Part shown: positions 1 through 17,795 of the stretch, piece after piece
Position numbering within the stretch: the first letter of the stretch is position 1
How the letters are laid out: each line of letters begins with the position of its first letter
Origin: Lachnospiraceae bacterium
GTDB lineage: Bacteria > Bacillota > Clostridia > Lachnospirales > Lachnospiraceae
DNA: 64,000 bases
Direction: 5' to 3'
NCBI GenBank assembly: GCA_017934175.1
Contig: JAGBKB010000002.1
Location: 11,060 to 75,059 of the forward strand
Notes under the pieces: generated by a model
Told to the model about the DNA's origin: nothing
What the model saw: only the letters and a program-made list of their open reading frames with translations
Database searches by the model: none
Made by a program: the position numbers and the translations under genes

Positions 1-100
1 AACTATTAGCTAATTATAGAGTATTGACATTAAAAAATAAAATACTTATAATTTAAGTATTATGATACCTTTTAGGTATGATAAAAATTAGGGGGATTTT

Positions 101-979
101 ATGGATTTAAGACAAATAAAATACTTTTTGGCTGTGGCTGAAGAAAGAAACATCACAAAGGCAGCAAAAAAACTGCACCTATCTCAGCCACCACTTAGCA
201 GGGCACTTATAGACCTTGAAAATGAATTTAATTGTAAACTTTTAATTAGAGGTAAAAGAAATATAACCTTGACTCCTGAAGGGCTTGCACTTAAAAGGCG
301 TGGTGAACAACTAATCACATTAACTGATATGACTAAAACAGAAATACTTAATATGGAACAAGGGCTAAGCGGAACTCTTTACATTGGTCATGTAGATAGC
401 GATGGTCCTACACTTATAGCAGAATGGATATCTTCATTCAAAAAAATTTATCCAAATGTCACTTACAATTTATGGTGTGGGACTGTAGATGACTTAACTG
501 ATCGTTTGAAATCCGGCCTGATAGATTTAGCTATAACTATGTCTCCGTCGTCAAGTGATATGATAGAAGGAATCAAAGTTTTTTCGGAAGATTGGGTTAC
601 TATAATTCCATCAAAGCATCCGCTAGCTAAAAGTAAAAAGCCAAATGTAAATGTCAAGGAATTAGTAAATGAAGATTTAATTATCTCATCAAGAAAAATA
701 AGAGAAAATGAAATTAGAGAGTGGTTTAAACCAACTAATATTGAGCCACATTTTATAGTTAAAACTGCTCACTCTTCAAATGCAGCAAAACTAGTTGCAA
801 AAAATATTGGTATAGCATTATTCCCAGCATCAGTTGCCAAAAATATTTCTGGTGATACAGATGTAATTATAAAAAAAGTAACTCCTACGATGAAAGTTGA
901 CTATCTATTATCTTGGAATAAAGAGAAAGAATTAAAGGCATTAGCAACAAAATTTATAGATCATGTGAAAAGTTTATAA
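101..979 (+). CDS. LysR-family transcriptional regulator
   Basis: 292-aa ORF. N-terminal HTH MDLRQIKYFLAVAEERNITKAAKKLHLSQPPLSR is typical of LysR regulators, with a C-terminal effector domain. GGGGGA RBS upstream. Confidence 0.9.
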   Translation: MDLRQIKYFLAVAEERNITKAAKKLHLSQPPLSRALIDLENEFNCKLLIRGKRNITLTPEGLALKRRGEQLITLTDMTKTEILNMEQGLSGTLYIGHVDSDGPTLIAEWISSFKKIYPNVTYNLWCGTVDDLTDRLKSGLIDLAITMSPSSSDMIEGIKVFSEDWVTIIPSKHPLAKSKKPNVNVKELVNEDLIISSRKIRENEIREWFKPTNIEPHFIVKTAHSSNAAKLVAKNIGIALFPASVAKNISGDTDVIIKKVTPTMKVDYLLSWNKEKELKALATKFIDHVKSL

Positions 980-980
980 T

Positions 981-1012
981 AAAAAAACTCTCCATAGCGG
1001 AGAGTATTTCAT
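981..1012. terminator. Bidirectional hairpin between convergent lysR-like and mnmA genes
   Basis: CTCTCC(988-993)/GGAGAG(999-1004) stem, with an A-run upstream and T-rich sequence downstream. Confidence 0.55.
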
Positions 1013-1041
1013 TTATATAATATATTTGTTACTATAAAACT

Positions 1042-2130
1042 CTATGCAATTATCCCGCCACCAAGAACTATATCACCATCATAAAATACTGCTGATTGAC
1101 CTTTTGTTATTGCCTTTTGTTTCTCTTTAAATGTAACTTTTGCATTTTTATCATCAAGCATATGTATCTCTGCTTCTGATTCTTCTTTTCTATATCTTGG
1201 TTTTACTTTACATTTAAAAGCATTCTTAGGCACGACTTCACTTACAAAACTAACATCCGTCACAAACATTTCATCGCTATATAAATCTTCTTCTTTGCCG
1301 AGGGTAACTTCATTTTTATTCGCATCAATTTTTGTCACAAAATATTTTCCATCAAGTTCTATGCCAAGTTTTCTATGCTGACCTATGGTATAATTTATAA
1401 TTCCCTTATGTCTGCCAAGTACTTTCCCATCTTCGTTTACTATATTACCATCTTTAATCTCTTCAGTTGCATTGATTTTAATTACTTTTACATAATCGCC
1501 ATCTGGTACAAAACAAATATCTTGACTATCTTTTTTATCGGCATTTGTAAATCCATTTTCTTTTGCAATGTTTCTAATATTTACTTTTTCATAATCGCCA
1601 AGTGGAAAAAGCAAATGACTTAATTGATCTTGATTTAAAAAATACAAAACATAACTTTGGTCTTTTGTTTTGTCAATCGCTTTCTTCAACATATATTTTC
1701 CATTTACAAATTCAATCCTTGCATAATGACCTGTGACCACATAATCACAATTTAGTATTTTCATTCTCTCAAATAATTTGTCAAACTTCATATACTTGTT
1801 GCAATCTATACACGGATTTGGCGTGGCACCATTCATGTACTCACTTACAAATTTATTGATAACTTTTTCTTTAAATAAATCTTTAAAGTTAAATGTATAA
1901 TGCTTTACATTGTACTTATTACAAATACTTCTTGCATCAAGTACATCATCTACACTACAGCAAGTACGACTGTTACTCACACCTGCAGTTTCGTTATCAT
2001 ATAAATTCATAGTACAAGCAAGGCATTCAAAGCCATCATCAATAAGTAATTTTAATGCCACGCTTGAATCTATGCCACCACTCATCGCTACAAGAACTCT
2101 TTTGTTATTATTTACACTATCCATACACAT
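1042..2130 (-). CDS. mnmA: tRNA-specific 2-thiouridylase MnmA
   Basis: 362-aa ORF with PP-loop SGGIDSS and the conserved MnmA layout. The real start is probably the second ATG at 2124, 8 nt after TGgTATAAT (2141-2133). Confidence 0.93.
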   Translation of the reverse strand: MCMDSVNNNKRVLVAMSGGIDSSVALKLLIDDGFECLACTMNLYDNETAGVSNSRTCCSVDDVLDARSICNKYNVKHYTFNFKDLFKEKVINKFVSEYMNGATPNPCIDCNKYMKFDKLFERMKILNCDYVVTGHYARIEFVNGKYMLKKAIDKTKDQSYVLYFLNQDQLSHLLFPLGDYEKVNIRNIAKENGFTNADKKDSQDICFVPDGDYVKVIKINATEEIKDGNIVNEDGKVLGRHKGIINYTIGQHRKLGIELDGKYFVTKIDANKNEVTLGKEEDLYSDEMFVTDVSFVSEVVPKNAFKCKVKPRYRKEESEAEIHMLDDKNAKVTFKEKQKAITKGQSAVFYDGDIVLGGGIIA

Positions 2131-2178
2131 TTATTATACCATATTTGTAATAGTTTTAATAAGTAACAAGTATTATAT

Positions 2179-3069
2179 CTACTTTATTACCCCGCCCTCT
2201 ACCACAAGACTATTCTCATATTCAAGTCCATAAGTATCTACAAGTGTTGCTTCATAATCTTTATGGAAGAAGTTTTCTTGTCCAAGGCTCTTTATTTCAT
2301 TATTCAGCCAATTGAGTAAAGTTGTATTCCCTTTTGTAACTGCTGGTGCGATTGTATCATTGCTTCCAAGTGATGGTATACCTACAGTATAACCTTCATT
2401 TTGAAGAGAATATGCGATAACTTCGGTATTGTCATTTGCCCATGCAACAGCATTTCCATTTTCAAGTGCATTTTTTGCATTGGCATAAGTATCATATTTT
2501 TGTAGTTTGATTTCAGGATTATTTTGCATTAAGTATAGTTCTGCAGTTGTTCCTGAAATAACTATCACCTGTTCGTCTTTTCCAATTTGAGATAAATCTG
2601 TGATAACTTTGCTATTCGGAGATACAACACCAAGAGCAACATTCATATATGGTAATGCAAAATCAACTTTTTTCGCTCTGTCTTCCGTAACTGTAAAATT
2701 TGCAAGAATAATATCTACTTTTCCAGTTTCAAGATACTCAACTCTATTGGCTGCTTCTGTAGATACATAATTGATTCTAACACCTAAATCTTTTCCTATT
2801 CTCTCAGCAAAATAAACATCATAACCTTGGTATTTACCATATTCATCAACATACCCAAATGGATTTTTATCAGAAAATACTCCAATATTAATAGTTCCAC
2901 TTTCTTTAATTTGATCAAGAGTTCTATAAATTGTTGATGAGCTATTTGTAGAAGAATTTGCTTTGCTACTATTACCAGATGCCTTTCCTCCACAAGCAAT
3001 TAAAGATGTTCCCAATAAAATACTTAACCCTACTACGATACTTTTCTTAAAAAAAATTTCCTTTTTCAT
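2179..3069 (-). CDS. Polar amino-acid ABC transporter substrate-binding lipoprotein (cystine/cysteine-type suspected)
   Basis: 296-aa ORF with a lipoprotein signal (LIACGG) and SBP_bac_3-like sequence. Last gene of the ABC operon, which lies behind a Cys-rich leader. Confidence 0.85.
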   Translation of the reverse strand: MKKEIFFKKSIVVGLSILLGTSLIACGGKASGNSSKANSSTNSSSTIYRTLDQIKESGTINIGVFSDKNPFGYVDEYGKYQGYDVYFAERIGKDLGVRINYVSTEAANRVEYLETGKVDIILANFTVTEDRAKKVDFALPYMNVALGVVSPNSKVITDLSQIGKDEQVIVISGTTAELYLMQNNPEIKLQKYDTYANAKNALENGNAVAWANDNTEVIAYSLQNEGYTVGIPSLGSNDTIAPAVTKGNTTLLNWLNNEIKSLGQENFFHKDYEATLVDTYGLEYENSLVVEGGVIK

Positions 3070-3083
3070 AATTATTTTCTCCT

Positions 3084-3860
3084 TTATTTTCTTTTTTGTT
3101 TATAAGTAAAAGTGTCTAAAAATGCTTTAACTTTTTCCGACTTTGGTGATTCAAAAAAATCTTCTGGGCTTGTTGCTTCAATAATTGATCCTTCATCCAT
3201 AAACACAATTCTATCAGCAACCGCTCTAGCAAATAGCATTTCATGTGTCACTACAAGCATTGTCTTTCCCATATCAGCAAGCTCTAATATTACCTCTAAA
3301 ACTTCTCTTGTCATCTCAGGATCTAGAGAAGCTGTAACCTCATCAAAGAGTAGTATTTCTGGATTCATACATAATGCACGCACTATAGCAACTCTTTGTT
3401 TCTGGCCACCTGACAATTGACTTGGCATACTATATGCTTTCCCTTCTAAACCTACCCTCTTAAGCAATACCTTTGCATCTTCAATTACTTCCTTCTTTTT
3501 TCTTTTTTGAACTTTTATTGGTGCTAGAATAATATTATCTAACACATTTTTATGTGGAAATAATTCATAATTTTGAAATACCATTCCTATTTTTTGTCTT
3601 ATCTCTGACAAATTACTTTTCCTATTGGAAATTGTCTCTCCACACAATTTTATTTCTCCACCTTGGACATCTTCCAATAGGTTAATACATCGTAGAAGTG
3701 TGCTCTTCCCACACCCACTTGATCCAACTAATACCACAACTTCTCTTTTATGTAATTTTAAACTTAAATCTTTTATTGCAAAATTCTCATCATATTTCTT
3801 ATGTAAATGGGAAATTTCCAATATCACATCTTTTTTATTCTCATCTAACATTATTTCCAC
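3084..3860 (-). CDS. Polar amino-acid ABC transporter ATP-binding protein
   Basis: Walker A GSSGCGKST, signature LSGGQKQR, Walker B LLFDE. Confidence 0.92.
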   Translation of the reverse strand: MEIMLDENKKDVILEISHLHKKYDENFAIKDLSLKLHKREVVVLVGSSGCGKSTLLRCINLLEDVQGGEIKLCGETISNRKSNLSEIRQKIGMVFQNYELFPHKNVLDNIILAPIKVQKRKKKEVIEDAKVLLKRVGLEGKAYSMPSQLSGGQKQRVAIVRALCMNPEILLFDEVTASLDPEMTREVLEVILELADMGKTMLVVTHEMLFARAVADRIVFMDEGSIIEATSPEDFFESPKSEKVKAFLDTFTYKQKRK

Positions 3861-4555
3861 CTCTTTTCAAGTTTCATTGATAAAACACTTATAGGCCAAC
3901 ATATTAAAAAGTATAGAATAAAGACTACCAAATAAACACCAAATGCTGCATTCTTACTTAACATACGATTAGCCTCTATAATTTGCTGTGCCACTTTTAT
4001 CATTTCAACAACTCCAATCATAAGTACTAAACTTGTAGTTTTTATCATTCTTGTGATTAGATTTATTGATATCGGTATAATTCTTCTTAGCGATTGTGGT
4101 AAAATTACATAAATGAATGTCTGTAATCTACTTAAACCAAGTGCCTCGGCACTTTCATATTGATGATTTGAAACACTTGAAAGAGAGCCTCGAACGATTT
4201 CACCCATTTCTGCTATACCCCAAAGTGAGAAAACAATTATAGCTGATAGTTCTCCAGTCAAGTTAATTCTAAATACTCTTGTACTACCGAAATACACAAT
4301 AAACAATAATACTAATTGTGGCATGATTCTTATAAAGTCAATATAGATTCTTGACACAACTCTAACCGCTATGTTTTTCTTTTGTATCAATATTCCAAAA
4401 GCTAACCCTAATGCAACACTAATTGCTATAGAAATTAAACTTATTTTAAGTGTCACTAAAAGCCCGCCCATTAGTCTTAAGAAATTATGGCCTTTAAATA
4501 AAACATCAATTCCTAAGTCTTTCACATAACTAAACATACTTGATTTTCCTTTCAA
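3851..4555 (-). CDS. Amino-acid ABC transporter permease
   Basis: 234-aa multi-TM ORF of the His/Glu/Gln/Arg-type permease family. Overlaps its neighbours, consistent with an operon. Confidence 0.85.
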   Translation of the reverse strand: MKGKSSMFSYVKDLGIDVLFKGHNFLRLMGGLLVTLKISLISIAISVALGLAFGILIQKKNIAVRVVSRIYIDFIRIMPQLVLLFIVYFGSTRVFRINLTGELSAIIVFSLWGIAEMGEIVRGSLSSVSNHQYESAEALGLSRLQTFIYVILPQSLRRIIPISINLITRMIKTTSLVLMIGVVEMIKVAQQIIEANRMLSKNAAFGVYLVVFILYFLICWPISVLSMKLEKRWK

Positions 4556-5192
4556 TCAAAATTCCTATAATCGATACAGGTAATAATATAATTAAATAGA
4601 AAAGCACTAACATCAACAAAGCTTCAATGGTATTATAATATATTCCAATTAAATCTTTTGCAGTAAACATCAAATCCATTATACTAATTGCCGAAAATAC
4701 TGATGTCTCCTTTAATAAAAATATAATGTTGGCAATTATTCCATGTAGACTTACTCTTATTGCTTGTGGCATAATTATATATATTATTGTTTGTAACTTA
4801 CTAAATCCTAAACTGTAAGCACTCTCTTTTTGGATTACATCTATAGCCTCTATTCCGCTTCTGAAGGTCTCTGCCATATAACTACCTCCCAAAAATGCGA
4901 GTCCTAAAATTGCGCACATTTCTGCCTTAATCGAAATGCCAACTTTAGGAAGTCCATAATAAATAAAGAATAATTGAATAATTAGTGGTGTATTTCTACT
5001 TAATTCTATATAGAACTTGGTAATATTTCTAAGCACTGGCACTTGATAAAAAGTAATTATAGTTAATGCTAAGCCAATAATAATTGCAAATATTATCCCT
5101 ATAATTCCTATTTTAAGTGTTAATATTGCTGCCTCCTTATAGAGTGGAAGAAATTTTATAATAAATTCATAATCCATGCTACATTTACACAC
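4530..5192 (-). CDS. Amino-acid ABC transporter permease
   Basis: 220-aa multi-TM ORF, paralog of the adjacent permease. The likely true start is ATG at 5177 (MDYEF...). Confidence 0.85.
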   Translation of the reverse strand: MCKCSMDYEFIIKFLPLYKEAAILTLKIGIIGIIFAIIIGLALTIITFYQVPVLRNITKFYIELSRNTPLIIQLFFIYYGLPKVGISIKAEMCAILGLAFLGGSYMAETFRSGIEAIDVIQKESAYSLGFSKLQTIIYIIMPQAIRVSLHGIIANIIFLLKETSVFSAISIMDLMFTAKDLIGIYYNTIEALLMLVLFYLIILLPVSIIGILIERKIKYV

Positions 5193-5202
5193 CCTTTCAC
5201 AA

Positions 5203-5233
5203 TAAAAAATGCTACGGACTCATTTTCCGTAGC
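5203..5233 (-). terminator. Intrinsic terminator inside the 5' leader of the ABC operon (attenuator)
   Basis: Minus strand GCTACGG-AAAATGAGT-CCGTAGC followed by ATTTTTTATT. It lies between the promoter or leader ORF and the operon start. Confidence 0.75.
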
Positions 5234-5262
5234 ATTTAACAAATATTATTTATTACTTCTAA

Positions 5263-5346
5263 CTATTTTTTGTATGCACACGAAAAATGAATTGCTTTCA
5301 TGCAACATACACAACAACTATTTAAATTTGCATATACTTTTTTCAT
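5263..5346 (-). CDS. Putative Cys-rich leader peptide (27 aa) MKKVYANLNSCCVCCMKAIHFSCAYKK
   Basis: My own translation of the minus strand, ATG 5346 to TAG 5263. Cys codons at positions 11, 12, 14, 15 and 23. The 3' codons overlap the antiterminator strand. Confidence 0.6.
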   Translation of the reverse strand: MKKVYANLNSCCVCCMKAIHFSCAYKK

Positions 5347-5363
5347 GTGAATTACCTACAATT

Positions 5364-5391
5364 ATTATATCATTATATAAAATAATGGCAA
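5364..5391 (-). promoter_or_regulatory. SigA-type promoter of the Cys leader / ABC operon
   Basis: TTGCCA(5391-5386)-16 nt-TGaTATAAT(5372-5364), 17 nt upstream of the leader ATG. Confidence 0.55.
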
Positions 5392-5433
5392 TACTTTTTT
5401 TCTCATTTAGGTTATATGTTTTATAACAACTTA

Positions 5434-5462
5434 TTGGAAATTTATATAAACTATAGTATAAT
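5434..5462 (+). promoter_or_regulatory. SigA-type promoter abutting the ttcA-like start (leaderless candidate)
   Basis: TTGGAA(5434-5439)-17 nt-TATAAT(5457-5462), then 6 nt to ATG 5469. No SD sequence. Confidence 0.55.
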
Positions 5463-6635
5463 TTGTATATGATAAAAAACATTCAAAATATAGAGATATG
5501 TATAAATGACTTTATGAATATCAAAGACAACAATGATGTTGTGGTTATTGATATGCGAAGTGATATTGAAAGGTCATACGGCAATATAAAAAATAGCATT
5601 CATCTTGATGGTGAAAATCTCAAAAATGACCCACCTCACGATGCAAATAAAAACTACATTATCTGTTGCTCTCGCGGAAAAACAAGCTATGAAATAGCAA
5701 AAGAACTTAGAGACAGCGGATTTTCAAACTATTATAGTCTAAAAGGTGGATACTCATCTTATGTACTTTATTTGATTAGAAATGATAAACAAAATGAATC
5801 TAATACTATTCTTTTAGACAAAGTTGAAAAATCAATACAAACTAAATTTAGAACAAATCTTATGTCTAATTTTCTAAAAGCAATAAAAACCTATAAGTTA
5901 ATAAATGAAAATGATAAAATTGCTATCTGCATATCAGGTGGCAAGGATAGTTTTCTTATGGCTATGCTATTTAGAGAATTAAAAAAATGGTCTAAGATTA
6001 ATTTTGATGTAGAGTATATATCTATGGACCCAGGATATAACGAAACTAATAGAAAATTAATTGAAGAAAATGCTAAGGCACTTGATATACCAATTAAAAT
6101 ATTTGAATCTGATATATTTGATATTGTGTACAATGAAGAAAAATCCCCTTGCTATCTATGTGCAAGAATGAGAAGAGGGCACCTATATGCATATGCTAAA
6201 AAAATATCATGCAATAAAATAGCACTTGCACACCACTATGATGATGTTATAGAAACAATTCTTATGGGTATGCTCTATGGCGGGCAAATGCAGTCTATGC
6301 TTCCTAGATTAAAAAGCACTAACTTTCAAGGAATGGAACTCATACGTCCACTATATCTTATAAGGGAAGATGACATAATAAATTGGCGAGATTATAATGA
6401 TTTACATTTTTTGCAATGTGCTTGTAAATTTATAGACACTTGCACAACTTGTAATAACAATGAAAATGCATCTAAAAGACTTGAAGTAAAAAAGATTATA
6501 AAAACTCTTAAAGAGAAAAATCCATATATAGAAAGCAACATCTTTAGGAGTGCTGAAAATGCACAAGTTGATACTCTTCTTTCTTACAAAATAAAAGGAG
6601 TGAAACACTCCTTTCTTGAAAATTTTGATGATTAA
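5463..6635 (+). CDS. ttcA: Rhodanese domain fused to a TtcA-family PP-loop tRNA thiolation ATPase
   Basis: The N-terminal ~100 aa are rhodanese-like (active-site-like CCSRGKTS). The rest has PP-loop SGGKDS and the TtcA-type CYLCARMRRG motif. The probable start is ATG 5469. Confidence 0.75.
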   Translation: MYMIKNIQNIEICINDFMNIKDNNDVVVIDMRSDIERSYGNIKNSIHLDGENLKNDPPHDANKNYIICCSRGKTSYEIAKELRDSGFSNYYSLKGGYSSYVLYLIRNDKQNESNTILLDKVEKSIQTKFRTNLMSNFLKAIKTYKLINENDKIAICISGGKDSFLMAMLFRELKKWSKINFDVEYISMDPGYNETNRKLIEENAKALDIPIKIFESDIFDIVYNEEKSPCYLCARMRRGHLYAYAKKISCNKIALAHHYDDVIETILMGMLYGGQMQSMLPRLKSTNFQGMELIRPLYLIREDDIINWRDYNDLHFLQCACKFIDTCTTCNNNENASKRLEVKKIIKTLKEKNPYIESNIFRSAENAQVDTLLSYKIKGVKHSFLENFDD

Positions 6636-14446: not shown

Positions 14447-14473
14447 AGGGGTTGCTTATAAAAAAGCAACCCC
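14447..14473. terminator. Hairpin between convergent hydG and metA
   Basis: GGGGTTGCTT / AAGCAACCCC 10-bp stem. The T-run is on the minus-strand side. Confidence 0.6.
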
Positions 14474-14506: not shown

Positions 14507-15430
14507 TTATGTGAGCCCTATACTCTCTATGTTATAAGGCGTCTCTTGATATACTATGTAATTTAACCAATTTGAATAAAATAGATTTGCATGAGCTCTC
14601 CATTTAACTATTATGTCATTTTTAGGATCGTCATTCACAAAATAGTTTTCAGGTACTTTTATAGGGAGGCCTTTACTTACATCTCTGTCATACTCATTTT
14701 TTAAGGTGTCTATATCATACTCCGAATGTCCAAATACAAATATCTTCTTGCCATTTTTTGTAAATACTATATTTACACCTGCCTTATCTGATTCTGCAAG
14801 TATTTTAAGTTCTGAAATTTTTTCTATGTCACTTTTCTTTACTGTAGTGTGCCTTGAATGAGGCACATAAAAAGCGTCATCAAAACCTCTAAGTAAGATT
14901 GCATTTTTATAAATTACTTTATGCTCAAAAATTCCAAATAATTTTTCATCAAGTTTATATTTTTTTATTCCATAATGATGATACAAACCGGCCTGAGCAC
15001 CCCAACAAATATGTAAAGTACTATATACATTTTTATTAGTCCAGTCCATTATCTCACACAGTTCATCCCAATAATCTACATCTTCAAATTCTAAATGCTC
15101 AACTGGTGCACCAGTGATTATGCATCCGTCATATTTATTATTTTTTATCTCATCAAATGACTTGTAAAAATTTTGAAGATGCTCTATACCTGTATTATGT
15201 GGGATATGACTCTTCGGAGCAAGTAATTCTAAATCTATTTGAAGAGGAGTATTGCCAAGAACTCTTGCAAACTGAGTTTCTGTTTGTATCTTGGTAGGCA
15301 TAAGATTTACGAGTAAAATTTTTAGCGGTCTTATGTCTTGAGTCTCAGCTCTTAATTTTGTCATTACAAATATATTTTCATTTTCAAGAATCTTTTTAGC
15401 TGGTAAATTATCTGGAATTTTAATTGGCAT
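14507..15430 (-). CDS. metA: Homoserine O-acyltransferase MetA
   Basis: 307-aa ORF with N-terminus [11 protein letters not shown]...[10 protein letters not shown], characteristic of MetA (HTS family). Confidence 0.92.
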
Positions 15431-15515: not shown

Positions 15516-16790
15516 TTAAATGCTATCAAGCGCATTTTTTACATCTTCAAGTAAGTCGTCGCCATTTTCAATACCTACACTAAGTCTAACCATACCTGCT
15601 GATACACCTGCAGCAACTAATTGCTCATCAGTTAATTGTCTGTGAGTAGTTATAGATGGTGCGAGGCAACAACTTCTCGCATCAGCTACATGAGTTTCAA
15701 TAGCTATGAGTTTAAGTGTCTTCATAAATTTCTCTGCTGCTTCTCTTCCACCATTTAAATCAAAACTTATAACTCCACAAGTTCCATTTGGCAAATATTT
15801 CTCAATCAAATCATGATGTTCAAAACTCTTCAAGCCTGGATATTTAATTGATTTTACCTTATCACTCTTTTCAAGATACTCTGCCACCTTTTGTGCGTTT
15901 TTACAATGAGCTGGTATTCTCACATGTAAACTTTCTATGCCGAGGTTTAAATAAAAAGCATTTTGTGGGCTTTGGATAGAACCTAAGTCTCTCATAAGCT
16001 GCGCAGTAGCCTTAGTTATAAATGCACCCTCTTTTCCAAATGCTTCTGCATATACTAAACCATGATAACTATCATCTGGAGTTGTAAGTCCTGGAAATTT
16101 ATCCTTATGTGCCATCCAGTCAAATTTTCCAGAATCAACTATAGCACCACCAACTCCCACTCCGTGTCCATCAAGATATTTAGTAGTTGAATGAGTTACT
16201 ATATCTACACCAAATTCAATTGGTCTACAATTTATAGGAGTAGGGAAAGTATTGTCAACTATTACTGGAATTCCTGCTTCATGAGCTACCTTTACAAATT
16301 TTTCAAAATCAAATACGTCAAGAGATGGATTTGCAATGGTTTCACCAAATATTAATTTTGTATTTGGCCTAATGGCTTTTCTAATTGTATCTTCATCACT
16401 ATAAGGTGGTATAAATGTAGTTTCTATACCCATCTTTTTTAAAGTAACGGCAAATAAATTAAATGTACCACCATAGATAGCACTTGTACTTATCAAATGG
16501 TCTCCTGCATTACAGAGATTAAATACAGCGAAGAAGTTTGCTGCTTGACCTGATGATGTTAACATTCCTGCTACTCCACCTTCAAGTTCAGTTATTTTTT
16601 TTGCTACATAATCATTAGTTGGATTAGAAAGCCTTGTATAAAAATAGCCTGCGGCCTCTAAATTAAATAATTTCCCCATAAACTCACAAGTGTCAAACTT
16701 AAATGTAGTTGACTGAACTATAGGCACCTGCCTTGGCTCAGCATTTCCTGGTTTGTAACCACCCTGAATACAAATTGTTTCTTTTTTCAT
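15516..16790 (-). CDS. metY: O-acetylhomoserine sulfhydrylase (aminocarboxypropyltransferase) MetY
   Basis: 424-aa Cys/Met-metabolism PLP enzyme with the STTKYLDGHG PLP-lysine motif. AAGGAGG RBS. Confidence 0.9.
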   Translation of the reverse strand: MKKETICIQGGYKPGNAEPRQVPIVQSTTFKFDTCEFMGKLFNLEAAGYFYTRLSNPTNDYVAKKITELEGGVAGMLTSSGQAANFFAVFNLCNAGDHLISTSAIYGGTFNLFAVTLKKMGIETTFIPPYSDEDTIRKAIRPNTKLIFGETIANPSLDVFDFEKFVKVAHEAGIPVIVDNTFPTPINCRPIEFGVDIVTHSTTKYLDGHGVGVGGAIVDSGKFDWMAHKDKFPGLTTPDDSYHGLVYAEAFGKEGAFITKATAQLMRDLGSIQSPQNAFYLNLGIESLHVRIPAHCKNAQKVAEYLEKSDKVKSIKYPGLKSFEHHDLIEKYLPNGTCGVISFDLNGGREAAEKFMKTLKLIAIETHVADARSCCLAPSITTHRQLTDEQLVAAGVSAGMVRLSVGIENGDDLLEDVKNALDSI

Positions 16791-16810
16791 AAGTTTCCTC
16801 CTTAAGAATT

Positions 16811-16841
16811 AAAAAATGCTACGGGTTTAATTTCCCGTAGC
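16811..16841 (-). terminator. Intrinsic terminator inside the metY-metA leader (attenuator)
   Basis: Minus strand GCTACGGG-AAATTAAA-CCCGTAGC followed by ATTTTTTAATT, about 20 nt upstream of the metY ATG. Confidence 0.75.
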
Positions 16842-16870
16842 ATTTTCAAAATAAGATTAATTTACCATTT

Positions 16871-16954
16871 TTATTTGCACACGGAAAATAGAGATGAATA
16901 ACACATCCCCATCATCATAGCTGCAAATTCATTTGTTTTATAAACGCTTTTCAT
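16871..16954 (-). CDS. Putative Met-rich leader peptide (27 aa) MKSVYKTNEFAAMMMGMCYSSLFSVCK
   Basis: My own translation of the minus strand, ATG 16954 to TAA 16871. ATG ATG ATG GGG ATG TGT at 16918-16901. The 3' codons overlap the antiterminator strand. Confidence 0.6.
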   Translation of the reverse strand: MKSVYKTNEFAAMMMGMCYSSLFSVCK

Positions 16955-16961
16955 ATTTAGA

Positions 16962-16990
16962 ATTATACCCTTTTTTACCATCTAATTCAA
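16962..16990 (-). promoter_or_regulatory. Promoter of the Met leader / metY-metA operon
   Basis: TTGAAT(16990-16985)-17 nt-TATAAT(16967-16962), then 7 nt to the leader ATG. No SD. Confidence 0.6.
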
Positions 16991-17045
16991 TAACTTATAT
17001 TTTATATGTTATATACTATATAAACTGAAAACGCGGCTATAGTCA

Positions 17046-17795
17046 TTATTGTTCAAATTTCATCTCTATAAGTTTCTCTGTATCTTTTCTAATTTTTACA
17101 TGAATTACTATTTGTAATATAAATGCTAATAACATAGTAACAAGTGCTATTAATACTGCTATTTCTTGTACATTTTCAGGAACTCCTTCTTCAAGTCCTG
17201 CATTTTTTACATTCGTAGCATCATAAATTGTGTGAATCAAAATAGGAATTAATAGTGCTTTCACATATAACATTGTTATATTTTTATTTTCAGCTTTGTT
17301 TAATTTATAATATTTTGCCTTACCGATGTAGCTCGCCATTATAGACCCAAGCAACGAATGAAATGTAACTACAACTATTCTTATCACTATAGCTATCAAA
17401 TTTGACCCGTACAAGAATTCTTCAAATATTGTAAATCCCATTCCAACTCCAAATCCAGTAAGCAAATACTCATAAACATTTTTTGGCTTAAATATTTTTA
17501 TGCACAATAAGATAAATAAGCACTTTACAATTTCTTCTGGTAATCCTGCAGCAAAAAATGAAGATAGAATTGAATGCAATGCTAAGTTACTAATGTTATT
17601 TTTGTCATAACCAAGTTTTGAAAGTCCTATTGCAATTAAAATTGTAAGTGCTACAGAAACCACAAGTGATACTACACCAAGTATAACTGGTACAACTGCT
17701 TGAGCCTTACCTATTGATGGTGTTTCCCTTTTTTGCATTTTAAAGTAAATTATGCCAAGTATTATACTAGAAAGTACAAATTGTATTATAGCCAT
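17046..17795 (-). CDS. PrsW-family intramembrane protease
   Basis: 249-aa multi-TM ORF with EEIVK and HTIYD motifs typical of PrsW-like proteases. Confidence 0.7.
   Translation of the reverse strand: MAIIQFVLSSIILGIIYFKMQKRETPSIGKAQAVVPVILGVVSLVVSVALTILIAIGLSKLGYDKNNISNLALHSILSSFFAAGLPEEIVKCLFILLCIKIFKPKNVYEYLLTGFGVGMGFTIFEEFLYGSNLIAIVIRIVVVTFHSLLGSIMASYIGKAKYYKLNKAENKNITMLYVKALLIPILIHTIYDATNVKNAGLEEGVPENVQEIAVLIALVTMLLAFILQIVIHVKIRKDTEKLIEMKFEQ

Follow-up and report, generated by a model that had tools for sequence, protein, structure and literature searches.

A candidate methionine-sensing transcription attenuator with a Met-codon leader peptide upstream of metY-metA in a Lachnospiraceae bacterium

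Introduction

Leader-peptide attenuators are textbook regulators in Proteobacteria. Known controls of methionine (Met) genes are S-adenosylmethionine (SAM) riboswitches, T-boxes and proteins such as MetJ and MetR, and a common argument about this amino acid is that its shortage cripples initiation too. Here we describe a short leader upstream of the metY-metA operon of a Lachnospiraceae bacterium. It lies on the minus strand of a 64,000-nucleotide stretch of DNA (contig JAGBKB010000002.1 of assembly GCA_017934175.1, positions 11,060 to 75,059); this whole stretch is called the window below, and all positions refer to it. With a probability of roughly 0.8, we read the leader as a ribosome-mediated transcription attenuator of the trp/his type that would sense methionine through charged elongator tRNA-Met. 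A preliminary description of the sequence had proposed a candidate methionine attenuator at this place, and conservation, the match between codons and pathway, and alternative RNA folds argue for that proposal.

The likeness to the Escherichia coli leaders trpL, hisL, pheL, thrL, leuL and ilvL is one of layout. Like them, the locus has a short open reading frame (ORF) with a run of pathway codons in strand 1, a 2:3 antiterminator, a 3:4 intrinsic terminator with a U-run, and a stop codon placed to cover strand 2; as in the classical attenuators, the predicted terminator is more stable than the antiterminator and the decision would be kinetic. It differs from them in its amino acid, methionine, in its host, a low-GC uncultured rumen bacterium of Clostridia type, and in carrying two specificities on one backbone. 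Set against proteobacterial leaders, it shows no sequence similarity and no Rfam leader match, and the metY leaders lack a Shine-Dalgarno sequence and are apparently leaderless.

Leader peptides are also known in Actinobacteria, including cysteine (Cys) leaders (Seliverstov et al. 2005, PMC1262725), and mycobacteria have leaderless polycysteine ORFs that act on translation (Canestrari et al. 2020, 10.1101/834739). The present locus resembles both in having a short, apparently leaderless ORF with a run of sulfur amino-acid codons upstream of sulfur amino-acid genes. In mycobacteria several loci per genome respond by ribosome pausing, a concept that a paralogous Cys leader in the window fits. 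Compared with the mycobacterial short ORFs, however, the locus has a canonical terminator and antiterminator and a metY Shine-Dalgarno sequence outside the hairpin, and it does not fall into their class. The starts differ as well: our Cys leaders carry a Shine-Dalgarno sequence and our Met leaders of the metY type appear leaderless, whereas the mycobacterial polycysteine ORFs are leaderless.

Amino-acid leader peptides with terminators are rare in low-GC Gram-positive bacteria, where T-boxes and riboswitches normally act. For Firmicutes, a histidine leader of Bacilli that precedes hisZ/hisS has been presented as the first regular leader peptide (Naville & Gautheret 2010, PMC2965389). A phenylalanine upstream ORF, uORFC-13-1, precedes aroF in Acholeplasma (Brewer et al. 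2021, PMC8632094); the same paper has Cys upstream ORFs before cysS in Rhodobacterales (PMC8632094). The locus is like the Bacilli and Acholeplasma leaders in being such a rare case, but those concern other amino acids, are unrelated in sequence and have no shared backbone with alternative runs, and none of them is for Met. Because amino-acid leader peptides were already known in a few Firmicutes, the novelty lies in the Met specificity together with the shared backbone; the phylum itself is not new to this mode of control. In the literature searched, coverage of which was incomplete, we found no leader peptide with Met codons that controls met genes, which is absence of evidence and not proof. 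The Xanthomonas met 5' untranslated region, considered as a possible Met leader peptide, was rejected as SAM-I-like.

With S-box and Met T-box control, finally, the locus has in common the genes (metY, metA, metQ and cysK) and the terminator/antiterminator output in the 5' leader. What separates it from these is that no aptamer or tRNA-binding RNA is present and that the proposed signal is charged Met-tRNA read by a ribosome.

Organization of the metY leader

When the sequence was re-read, every leader element named in the preliminary description was found where it had been placed, on the minus strand between 16990 and 16790. The putative promoter has the -35 hexamer TTGAAT at 16985..16990 (10/12 consensus matches, with TTGA invariant among 8 aligned orthologous leaders) and, after a 17-nt spacer, the -10 hexamer TATAAT at 16962..16967; it ranks as the second-best site of the region in a consensus scan. 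Seven nucleotides further downstream, ATG 16954 opens the leader ORF (16871..16954), which has 27 codons and a TAA stop at 16873-16871 and would encode the peptide MKSVYKTNEFAAMMMGMCYSSLFSVCK. Its codons 13-17 form the presumed regulatory run AUG AUG AUG GGG AUG (16904..16918), and TGT follows, to 16901. Still inside the ORF lies the antiterminator core TTTTCCGTG (16888-16880; UUUUCCGUG as RNA). The hairpin GCTACGGG-N8-CCCGTAGC and its tail ATTTTTT occupy 16841-16811; a consensus scan extends this intrinsic terminator to 16811..16847, with a 14-pair stem (16847-16812), the core GCUACGGG/CCCGUAGC, an 8-nt loop and U6. From the predicted transcript start to the U-run is about 145 nt.

The metY start codon follows the T-run by just 20 nt, so a transcription start downstream of the leader ORF is unlikely. 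This interval contains the metY Shine-Dalgarno sequence AAGGAGG (16797..16803), which is outside the terminator hairpin and not sequestered by it. The operon behind the leader consists of metY (15516..16790, minus strand, ATG 16790), encoding an O-acetylhomoserine sulfhydrylase of 424 aa (TIGR01326, 563.5 bits), and metA (14507..15430, minus strand), encoding an acetyl-type homoserine O-acetyltransferase (NF047918, 501.3 bits). A terminator-like hairpin found by the consensus scan closes it (14448..14473, minus strand). The G+C content of the window is 29.6%, and its encoded proteins, such as MBP3200046.1, are the same as those of a metagenome-assembled genome listed at NCBI as 'Lachnospiraceae bacterium'.

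The leader thus offers a short ORF with a credible start, and its translation is predicted. In the metY leaders and in L098, one of the metQ leaders described below, no Shine-Dalgarno-like sequence occurs within 20 nt and the ATG follows the -10 hexamer by 6-9 nt; in the other two metQ leaders (L094 and L099) and in the Cys leaders, AAGGAG or AGGT(G) is present and the distance from -10 to ATG is 17-19 nt. That each leader has one arrangement or the other supports the promoter assignment as well as translation of the ORF. Since the window leader has no Shine-Dalgarno sequence and its ATG stands where the transcription start is expected, the mRNA from which its ORF would be translated is probably leaderless. 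An in-frame ATG at 16979-16981 (minus strand) would lengthen the ORF to 36 codons; it is probably unused as a start, because it lies between the -35 and -10 hexamers and has no counterpart in the orthologues.

Conservation among metY leaders

Close relatives were collected by a protein search that returned MetY sequences from 98% down to 80% identical, on contigs from metagenome assemblies; one sample record among these carries the study code PRJEB21624. The leader is present in every retrieved contig in which metY heads its operon. Each of these orthologous leaders has a TTGAnn -35 and a TATAAT -10 hexamer, and 6-9 nt beyond the latter an ATG opens an ORF of 27-32 codons that contains the Met run in frame. 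They also share the strand UUUYCGURUGC, a spacer of 30-43 nt that is rich in A and U, and a terminator GCUACGG-loop-CCGUAGC-U5-7. The run takes the forms MMMGM, MMMEM, MMMWM, MMMEMGM and M..MYMMM, whereas the ORFs differ in length and in their N-terminal residues, as the peptides of L081 (MINYLVINEFASMMMEMYCSSLFSVCK), L101 (MKNSFVTSKFAVMMMGMYRSSLFSVCK), L082 (MNNRFATILFELAHMMMWMKHHYFSCANLS), L083 (MMKIFGTSLFADMMMEMCCHLFFPCADKY), L086 (MKKVFVKSSYVDMMMEMGMCCHLLFPYANKN) and L088 (MKNLFETIAKMLYYMYMMMQPRPHYFSCAIVK) illustrate. All 12 distinct Met leaders, those before metQ included, have the run, with 4-6 Met codons within 5-9 positions; it is the best-conserved part of the peptide, and the flanking residues change. 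An orthologous leader that had lost its Met run, which the preliminary description would have counted against its proposal, did not appear.

The leader element is absent from a relative whose MetY is 73% identical. Among species-representative genomes of mixed taxa (best MetY relatives 67-72% identical), the 450 nt upstream contain no short ORF with a Met run at any of 80 loci, and in an nhmmer search the family profile matches none of these distant metY loci; it was because these loci lacked the leader that closer relatives were sought by the protein search.

How much of this could arise by chance depends on what is counted. The consensus scan found 24 promoter-like sites against 23.6 expected from shuffles, and a short-ORF scan found two further ORFs in the window with 4 Met in 6 codons. 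The motif GCTACGG-loop-CCGTAGC, for its part, occurs 2 times in the window where 0.00 are expected; the fold of the leader beats those of 200/200 shuffles (z = -4.2); and the whole arrangement is kept in independent relatives. Judged from the sequences, the real evidence is the conservation of the combined arrangement, the individual parts not being rare.

One RNA backbone with Met or Cys codon runs

The strongest support comes from an observation that the preliminary description had not foreseen, namely that Met and Cys leaders share one backbone. The RNA backbone, TTTTYCGTRTGCA...GCTACGG-loop-CCGTAGC-T6 in DNA letters, recurs with runs of either kind. The window itself holds a paralogous Cys leader at 5204..5391 on the minus strand (nhmmer E = 7e-23 against the family profile), within which a promoter TTGCCA-16-TATAAT is followed by a Shine-Dalgarno-like AGGT; it is probably the Cys leader mentioned in the preliminary description. 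Its ORF (5346-5263, minus strand), found by a short-ORF scan for codon runs, would encode MKKVYANLNSCCVCCMKAIHFSCAYKK, with the Cys run at 5316-5302. The 3' part is almost the same as that of the Met leader: UUUUUCGUGUGCA, a spacer, and GCUACGG-9-CCGUAGC-U6 (5233-5204). The operon behind it starts with a polar amino-acid (cystine-type) ATP-binding cassette (ABC) transporter (5192-2179, minus strand), comprising two polar amino-acid ABC permeases, an ATPase and a substrate-binding protein, and continues with mnmA; the best match of the ATPase is the L-cystine transporter TcyN, under the equivalog cut-off. Scanning the window for further backbone copies with other codon runs gave only the Met and Cys copies, and a search of the window for short ORFs with runs of His, Trp, Cys or Met codons yielded many chance ORFs within genes and none other with a terminator.

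A pattern scan of the metagenome collection for the backbone only, with the ORF left unconstrained, gave 5 true matches. Three precede genes for a MetQ lipoprotein: L094 (MKNVFVKSMMMYMMMSKSFFVCTK) and L099 (MKNVCRKSMMMCMMKDSFFVCTK), each with the Shine-Dalgarno sequence AAGGAG, and L098 (MTSVNGKLNTMMMCMMNEYFSCAHKS), whose ATG lies 6 nt after TAGTAT. Their runs are MMMYMMM once and MMMCMM twice. L097 (MKDVYTKFNTCCVCCMKAIHFSCAYKK), with a Shine-Dalgarno-like AGGTG, stands before cysK-cysE, and L096, a near-copy of the window Cys leader with a Shine-Dalgarno-like AGGT, stands before ABC transporter permeases. A sixth match, L095, is a false positive, GC-rich and inside a coding region. All 3 Cys leaders, located before cysK-cysE and the cystine-type transporter, contain the run CCVCC, that is, 4 Cys codons in 5 positions. 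The codon run thus matches the downstream pathway in four operon types on one RNA backbone. That the run should track the pathway in this way is predicted by a ribosome reading the codons, and by neither a metabolite aptamer nor one trans-acting factor.

What has been kept in the backbone is the nucleotides and not the peptide. Two frames are used among the leaders to read the invariant UUUYCGURUGC, as ..F S V C K in the window leader, L081, L101, L094 and L099 and as ..F (S/P) C A .. in the remaining ones; because the same nucleotides are read in both frames, it is the RNA that has been retained. The frame itself is open in 15 unique leaders (12 Met, 3 Cys). For each lineage, the frame would stay open by chance between the ATG and the backbone with a probability of 0.08-0.14, and it has been kept in about 8 well-diverged lineages. 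The distance from start codon to run is 24, 30, 36 or 42 nt, and in all leaders the stop codon lies 3-15 nt past the antiterminator strand.

These observations bear on the proposal that a functional small peptide is made from the short ORF, which would have a terminator of its own, with metY-metA expressed by readthrough or from another promoter and no amino acid sensed. In its favour, many leaders begin with MK(N/K)V(Y/F), and short Met-rich ORFs do arise by chance in AT-rich DNA, the two others in the window being examples. Such a peptide is nevertheless very improbable: the C-terminal half is kept as nucleotides in two frames and so not as peptide, the 20 nt after the U-run are too few to hold a metY promoter, the run changes between Met and Cys according to the genes behind it, and the antiterminator pairing is conserved.

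The N-terminal motif can also be written as MK(N/K/S)V(Y/F) for Met and Cys leaders together; in the window it is found at 16954-16940 and 5346-5332, and it recurs in related leaders. It points to common descent or to a need for an efficient start and early elongation.

Known RNA families

The preliminary description saw no S-box, SMK-box or T-box motif, and the Rfam covariance models agree. At the gathering score no Rfam family was found anywhere in the 64-kb window, whether tRNA, riboswitch, T-box or small RNA. With a permissive cut-off of E<=10, the region 16700-17150 gave 23 matches, all noise (small nucleolar RNA and microRNA models far below threshold), among them no SAM, SMK or T-box model. 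The 14 related loci had no Rfam match either, so that a SAM riboswitch or T-box match, an outcome named beforehand as fatal to the attenuator, occurred neither in the window nor in these loci. By their covariance models the leader is not a member of SAM-I, of the other SAM families or of the SMK-box, nor is it a T-box; it has only about 145 nt and no conserved stem I.

An unrecognised SAM or methionine riboswitch, or a T-box-like RNA whose AUG run would serve as specifier codons read by tRNA, is accordingly something we regard as extremely unlikely. In Firmicutes an S-box, SMK-box or T-box usually controls the sulfur amino-acid genes (Rodionov et al. 2004, cited in PMC6230763), and exchanging Met for Cys codons would also suit an RNA that reads tRNA. 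Besides the lack of any Rfam family at threshold and of anything relevant at E<=10, however, the short leader has no conserved aptamer and RNAalifold finds the terminator alone. The core of a metabolite pocket could not be exchanged for Cys codons, and 4-6 tandem in-frame codons with a well-placed stop are what a sensor read by a ribosome has, whereas a T-box has a single specifier codon.

It cannot be claimed that the leader has replaced an S-box, as no S-box or T-box was found before distant metY in 20 loci (MetY about 70% identical, within 3 kb), where the only Rfam matches were transfer-messenger RNA, tRNA and one thiamine pyrophosphate riboswitch. This set, L001-L052, mostly consists of rumen and gut metagenome-assembled genomes, and its 20 loci are also without a Met-run ORF within 3 kb.

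Alternative RNA structures

According to the folding models, the full three-helix trp-type layout is present. The 5' strand of the antiterminator, AUUUUCCGUG-U-GCA (16876..16889, minus strand), lies in the ORF 3-16 nt before the stop, and the 3' strand, UGC-UACGGGAAAU (16830..16842, minus strand), is formed by the 5' arm of the terminator and part of its loop. The preliminary description had correctly put an antiterminator inside the ORF and paired it with the terminator 5' arm and loop, but its length is 10 + 3 bp and not 9 bp. Missing from that description was a further hairpin, the anti-antiterminator, which joins the Met codons GAUGGGGAUG to CAUCUCUAUU. Its inner helix joins the Met-codon strand GA.GAUGGGGAUG (16904..16916, minus strand; z = -2.3 against shuffled upstream sequence) to CAUCUCUAUU.UC (16884..16896, minus strand), and its outer helix, seen in minimum-energy folds, joins AUUUGCA (16922..16928, minus strand) to UGCAAAU (16879-16873). 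Related leaders have the outer helix as UUUGCA/UGCAAA, UUUGCA/UGCAGA or UAUGCA/UGCAUA. The antiterminator 5' strand overlaps the 3' strands of both helices, and the unconstrained fold of the window leader consists of the compound anti-antiterminator hairpin and the terminator.

Fourteen leaders were folded under constraint with a 33-nt ribosome footprint, the transcript being cut before the terminator 3' arm when the footprint was placed on the codon run. With the footprint on the run, the 13-bp antiterminator forms in 14/14 leaders, at -8 to -24 kcal/mol; with the footprint at the stop codon, it cannot form. At equilibrium the full-length leader favours the terminator in most folds, and therefore the choice must be kinetic, as in trp. 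Together with a codon run for the amino acid of the downstream pathway and an intrinsic terminator, the leaders thus have an antiterminator that can be covered by a ribosome at the stop.

Pairing was counted on a 14-sequence alignment (A2), which does not contain L101. For the antiterminator, 99.5% of cells are paired, compared with 47-54% when the 3' partner is slid, and there is one compensatory pair, AU in 11 sequences and UA in 3. For the terminator, 90.8% of cells are paired compared with 33-58% when slid, and one pair is AU in 8, GC in 4 and GU in 2. Read by eye, the change from GGGAAA to GGAGAG in L101 keeps pairing by G-U pairs. RNAalifold on the full alignment gives only the terminator as consensus; the alternative helices were tested as named structures.

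Proposed mechanism

Transcription would begin with the A of AUG 16954 or right beside it, and the 27-codon ORF would be read from the leaderless 5' end. When Met-tRNA is plentiful, the ribosome would pass the AUG run and reach the UAA, covering AUUUUCCGUGUGCA, which lies 3-16 nt before the stop; with this strand covered, the terminator at 16847-16811 would form and transcription would end 20 nt before metY. When Met-tRNA is scarce, the ribosome would stall on the Met run and melt the hairpin made by the Met codons and AUUUGCA. The freed strand would then pair with UGCUACGGGAAAU, the 5' arm and loop of the terminator, as soon as this has been made, with the core UUUUCCGUG on UACGGGAAA; the antiterminator would block the terminator, and RNA polymerase would read on into metY-metA. 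Should no ribosome be present, for instance on transcripts reading through from upstream, the anti-antiterminator hairpin would favour termination. The start site, translation of the ORF, stalling, the order of folding with its kinetic competition, and the response to methionine are steps that we infer.

Several points weigh against this attenuator. One is that the inferred steps include the transcription start, translation of the ORF and the response to methionine. Leaderless translation is uncommon in Firmicutes, a shortage of methionine limits initiator fMet-tRNA as well, and the RNA polymerase of Bacillus subtilis is reported to outrun ribosomes; these three points make ribosome-dependent attenuation less obvious in Firmicutes. 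The weakest part is the anti-antiterminator. Against shuffled upstream sequence its z is -1.2 to -3.9 in Met leaders and about 0 in Cys leaders, and the position of its 5' strand differs between leaders. A truncated transcript free of ribosomes prefers the antiterminator at equilibrium in 9/14 leaders, so that basal termination without translation rests on the order of co-transcriptional folding. Control of metQ may be partial in L094 and L099, as a promoter-like site lies between terminator and gene and may act as a constitutive promoter beside attenuated readthrough; this is a strong site, TTGCAA-17-TATAAT, between the terminator and the metQ start codon in L094 (minus strand, about 80 nt), and L099 has such a site in the same place. 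Since the backbone hardly varies, there is little covariation: 7/13 antiterminator pairs and 8/14 terminator pairs never change.

Such invariance could also fit recognition by a trans-acting factor. A protein or small RNA might read the backbone (UUUUYCGUGUGCA, GCUACGG), leaving the ORF and its run a secondary or modulating role. The backbone is conserved beyond the needs of pairing, as GCUACGG, CCGUAGC and CGU.UGC are invariant in 14 sequences that include the Met and Cys paralogues, and the weak anti-antiterminator of the Cys leaders speaks in the same direction. One factor shared by all leaders would, however, leave unexplained why a Met or a Cys run matches the pathway, why the run without exception shares its frame with a start codon (at a Shine-Dalgarno sequence or at the predicted 5' end), and why the stop is always 3-15 nt past the antiterminator strand. 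Invariance could equally result from triple constraints, each strand having two partners, and from recent duplication. We consider such a factor improbable.

If the locus is indeed a methionine attenuator, elongation stalling on AUG codons would be usable as a methionine sensor, and charged tRNA-Met would be sensed and not SAM. A Firmicute would then use ribosome-dependent attenuation for biosynthetic genes despite the reported uncoupling of transcription and translation. A broader proposal, which we hold with a little more belief than doubt, is that this uncultured rumen lineage of Clostridia type has one modular attenuator cassette for sulfur amino-acid genes, its specificity set by the codon run only, and that this cassette includes the first methionine-sensing leader peptide. 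Its Met side would comprise metY-metA and metQ and its Cys side cysK-cysE and the cystine-type transporter; a portable terminator/antiterminator backbone with a short ORF would stand where S-boxes and T-boxes usually act, and in the leaderless metY version the charging of initiator and elongator Met-tRNA would both feed the decision. The Met/Cys pair on one backbone would amount to a natural codon-swap experiment, demonstrating that attenuation by leader peptides operates in a Firmicute, and to a compact design for synthetic amino-acid sensors, and short unannotated ORFs are suggested as regulators in genomes from rumen metagenomes.

Further observations

In one relative (L087/L100, contig 1-5533, MetY 83% identical), metY-metA comes last in a longer operon with the order luxS-like, Cys/Met pyridoxal phosphate enzyme, cysK-like, cysE-like, metY-metA. 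No leader stands directly before metY there, and the contig ends ahead of the operon start.

Around the window Cys leader, tRNA-modification genes that handle sulfur flank the transporter operon. The MnmA gene (1042-2130, minus strand) is the last gene of that operon, and a gene for a protein with rhodanese and PP-loop ATPase parts (5463-6635, plus strand) diverges from the leader.

In the window Met leader a Cys codon at 16901-16903 directly follows the run (MMMGMC). Most Met leaders have 1-2 Cys codons directly after or inside the run (L081, L083, L085, L086, L098 and L099; MMMEMCC, MMMCMM), and whichever frame is read, the backbone contributes one Cys codon. The Met leaders may also receive a Cys input.

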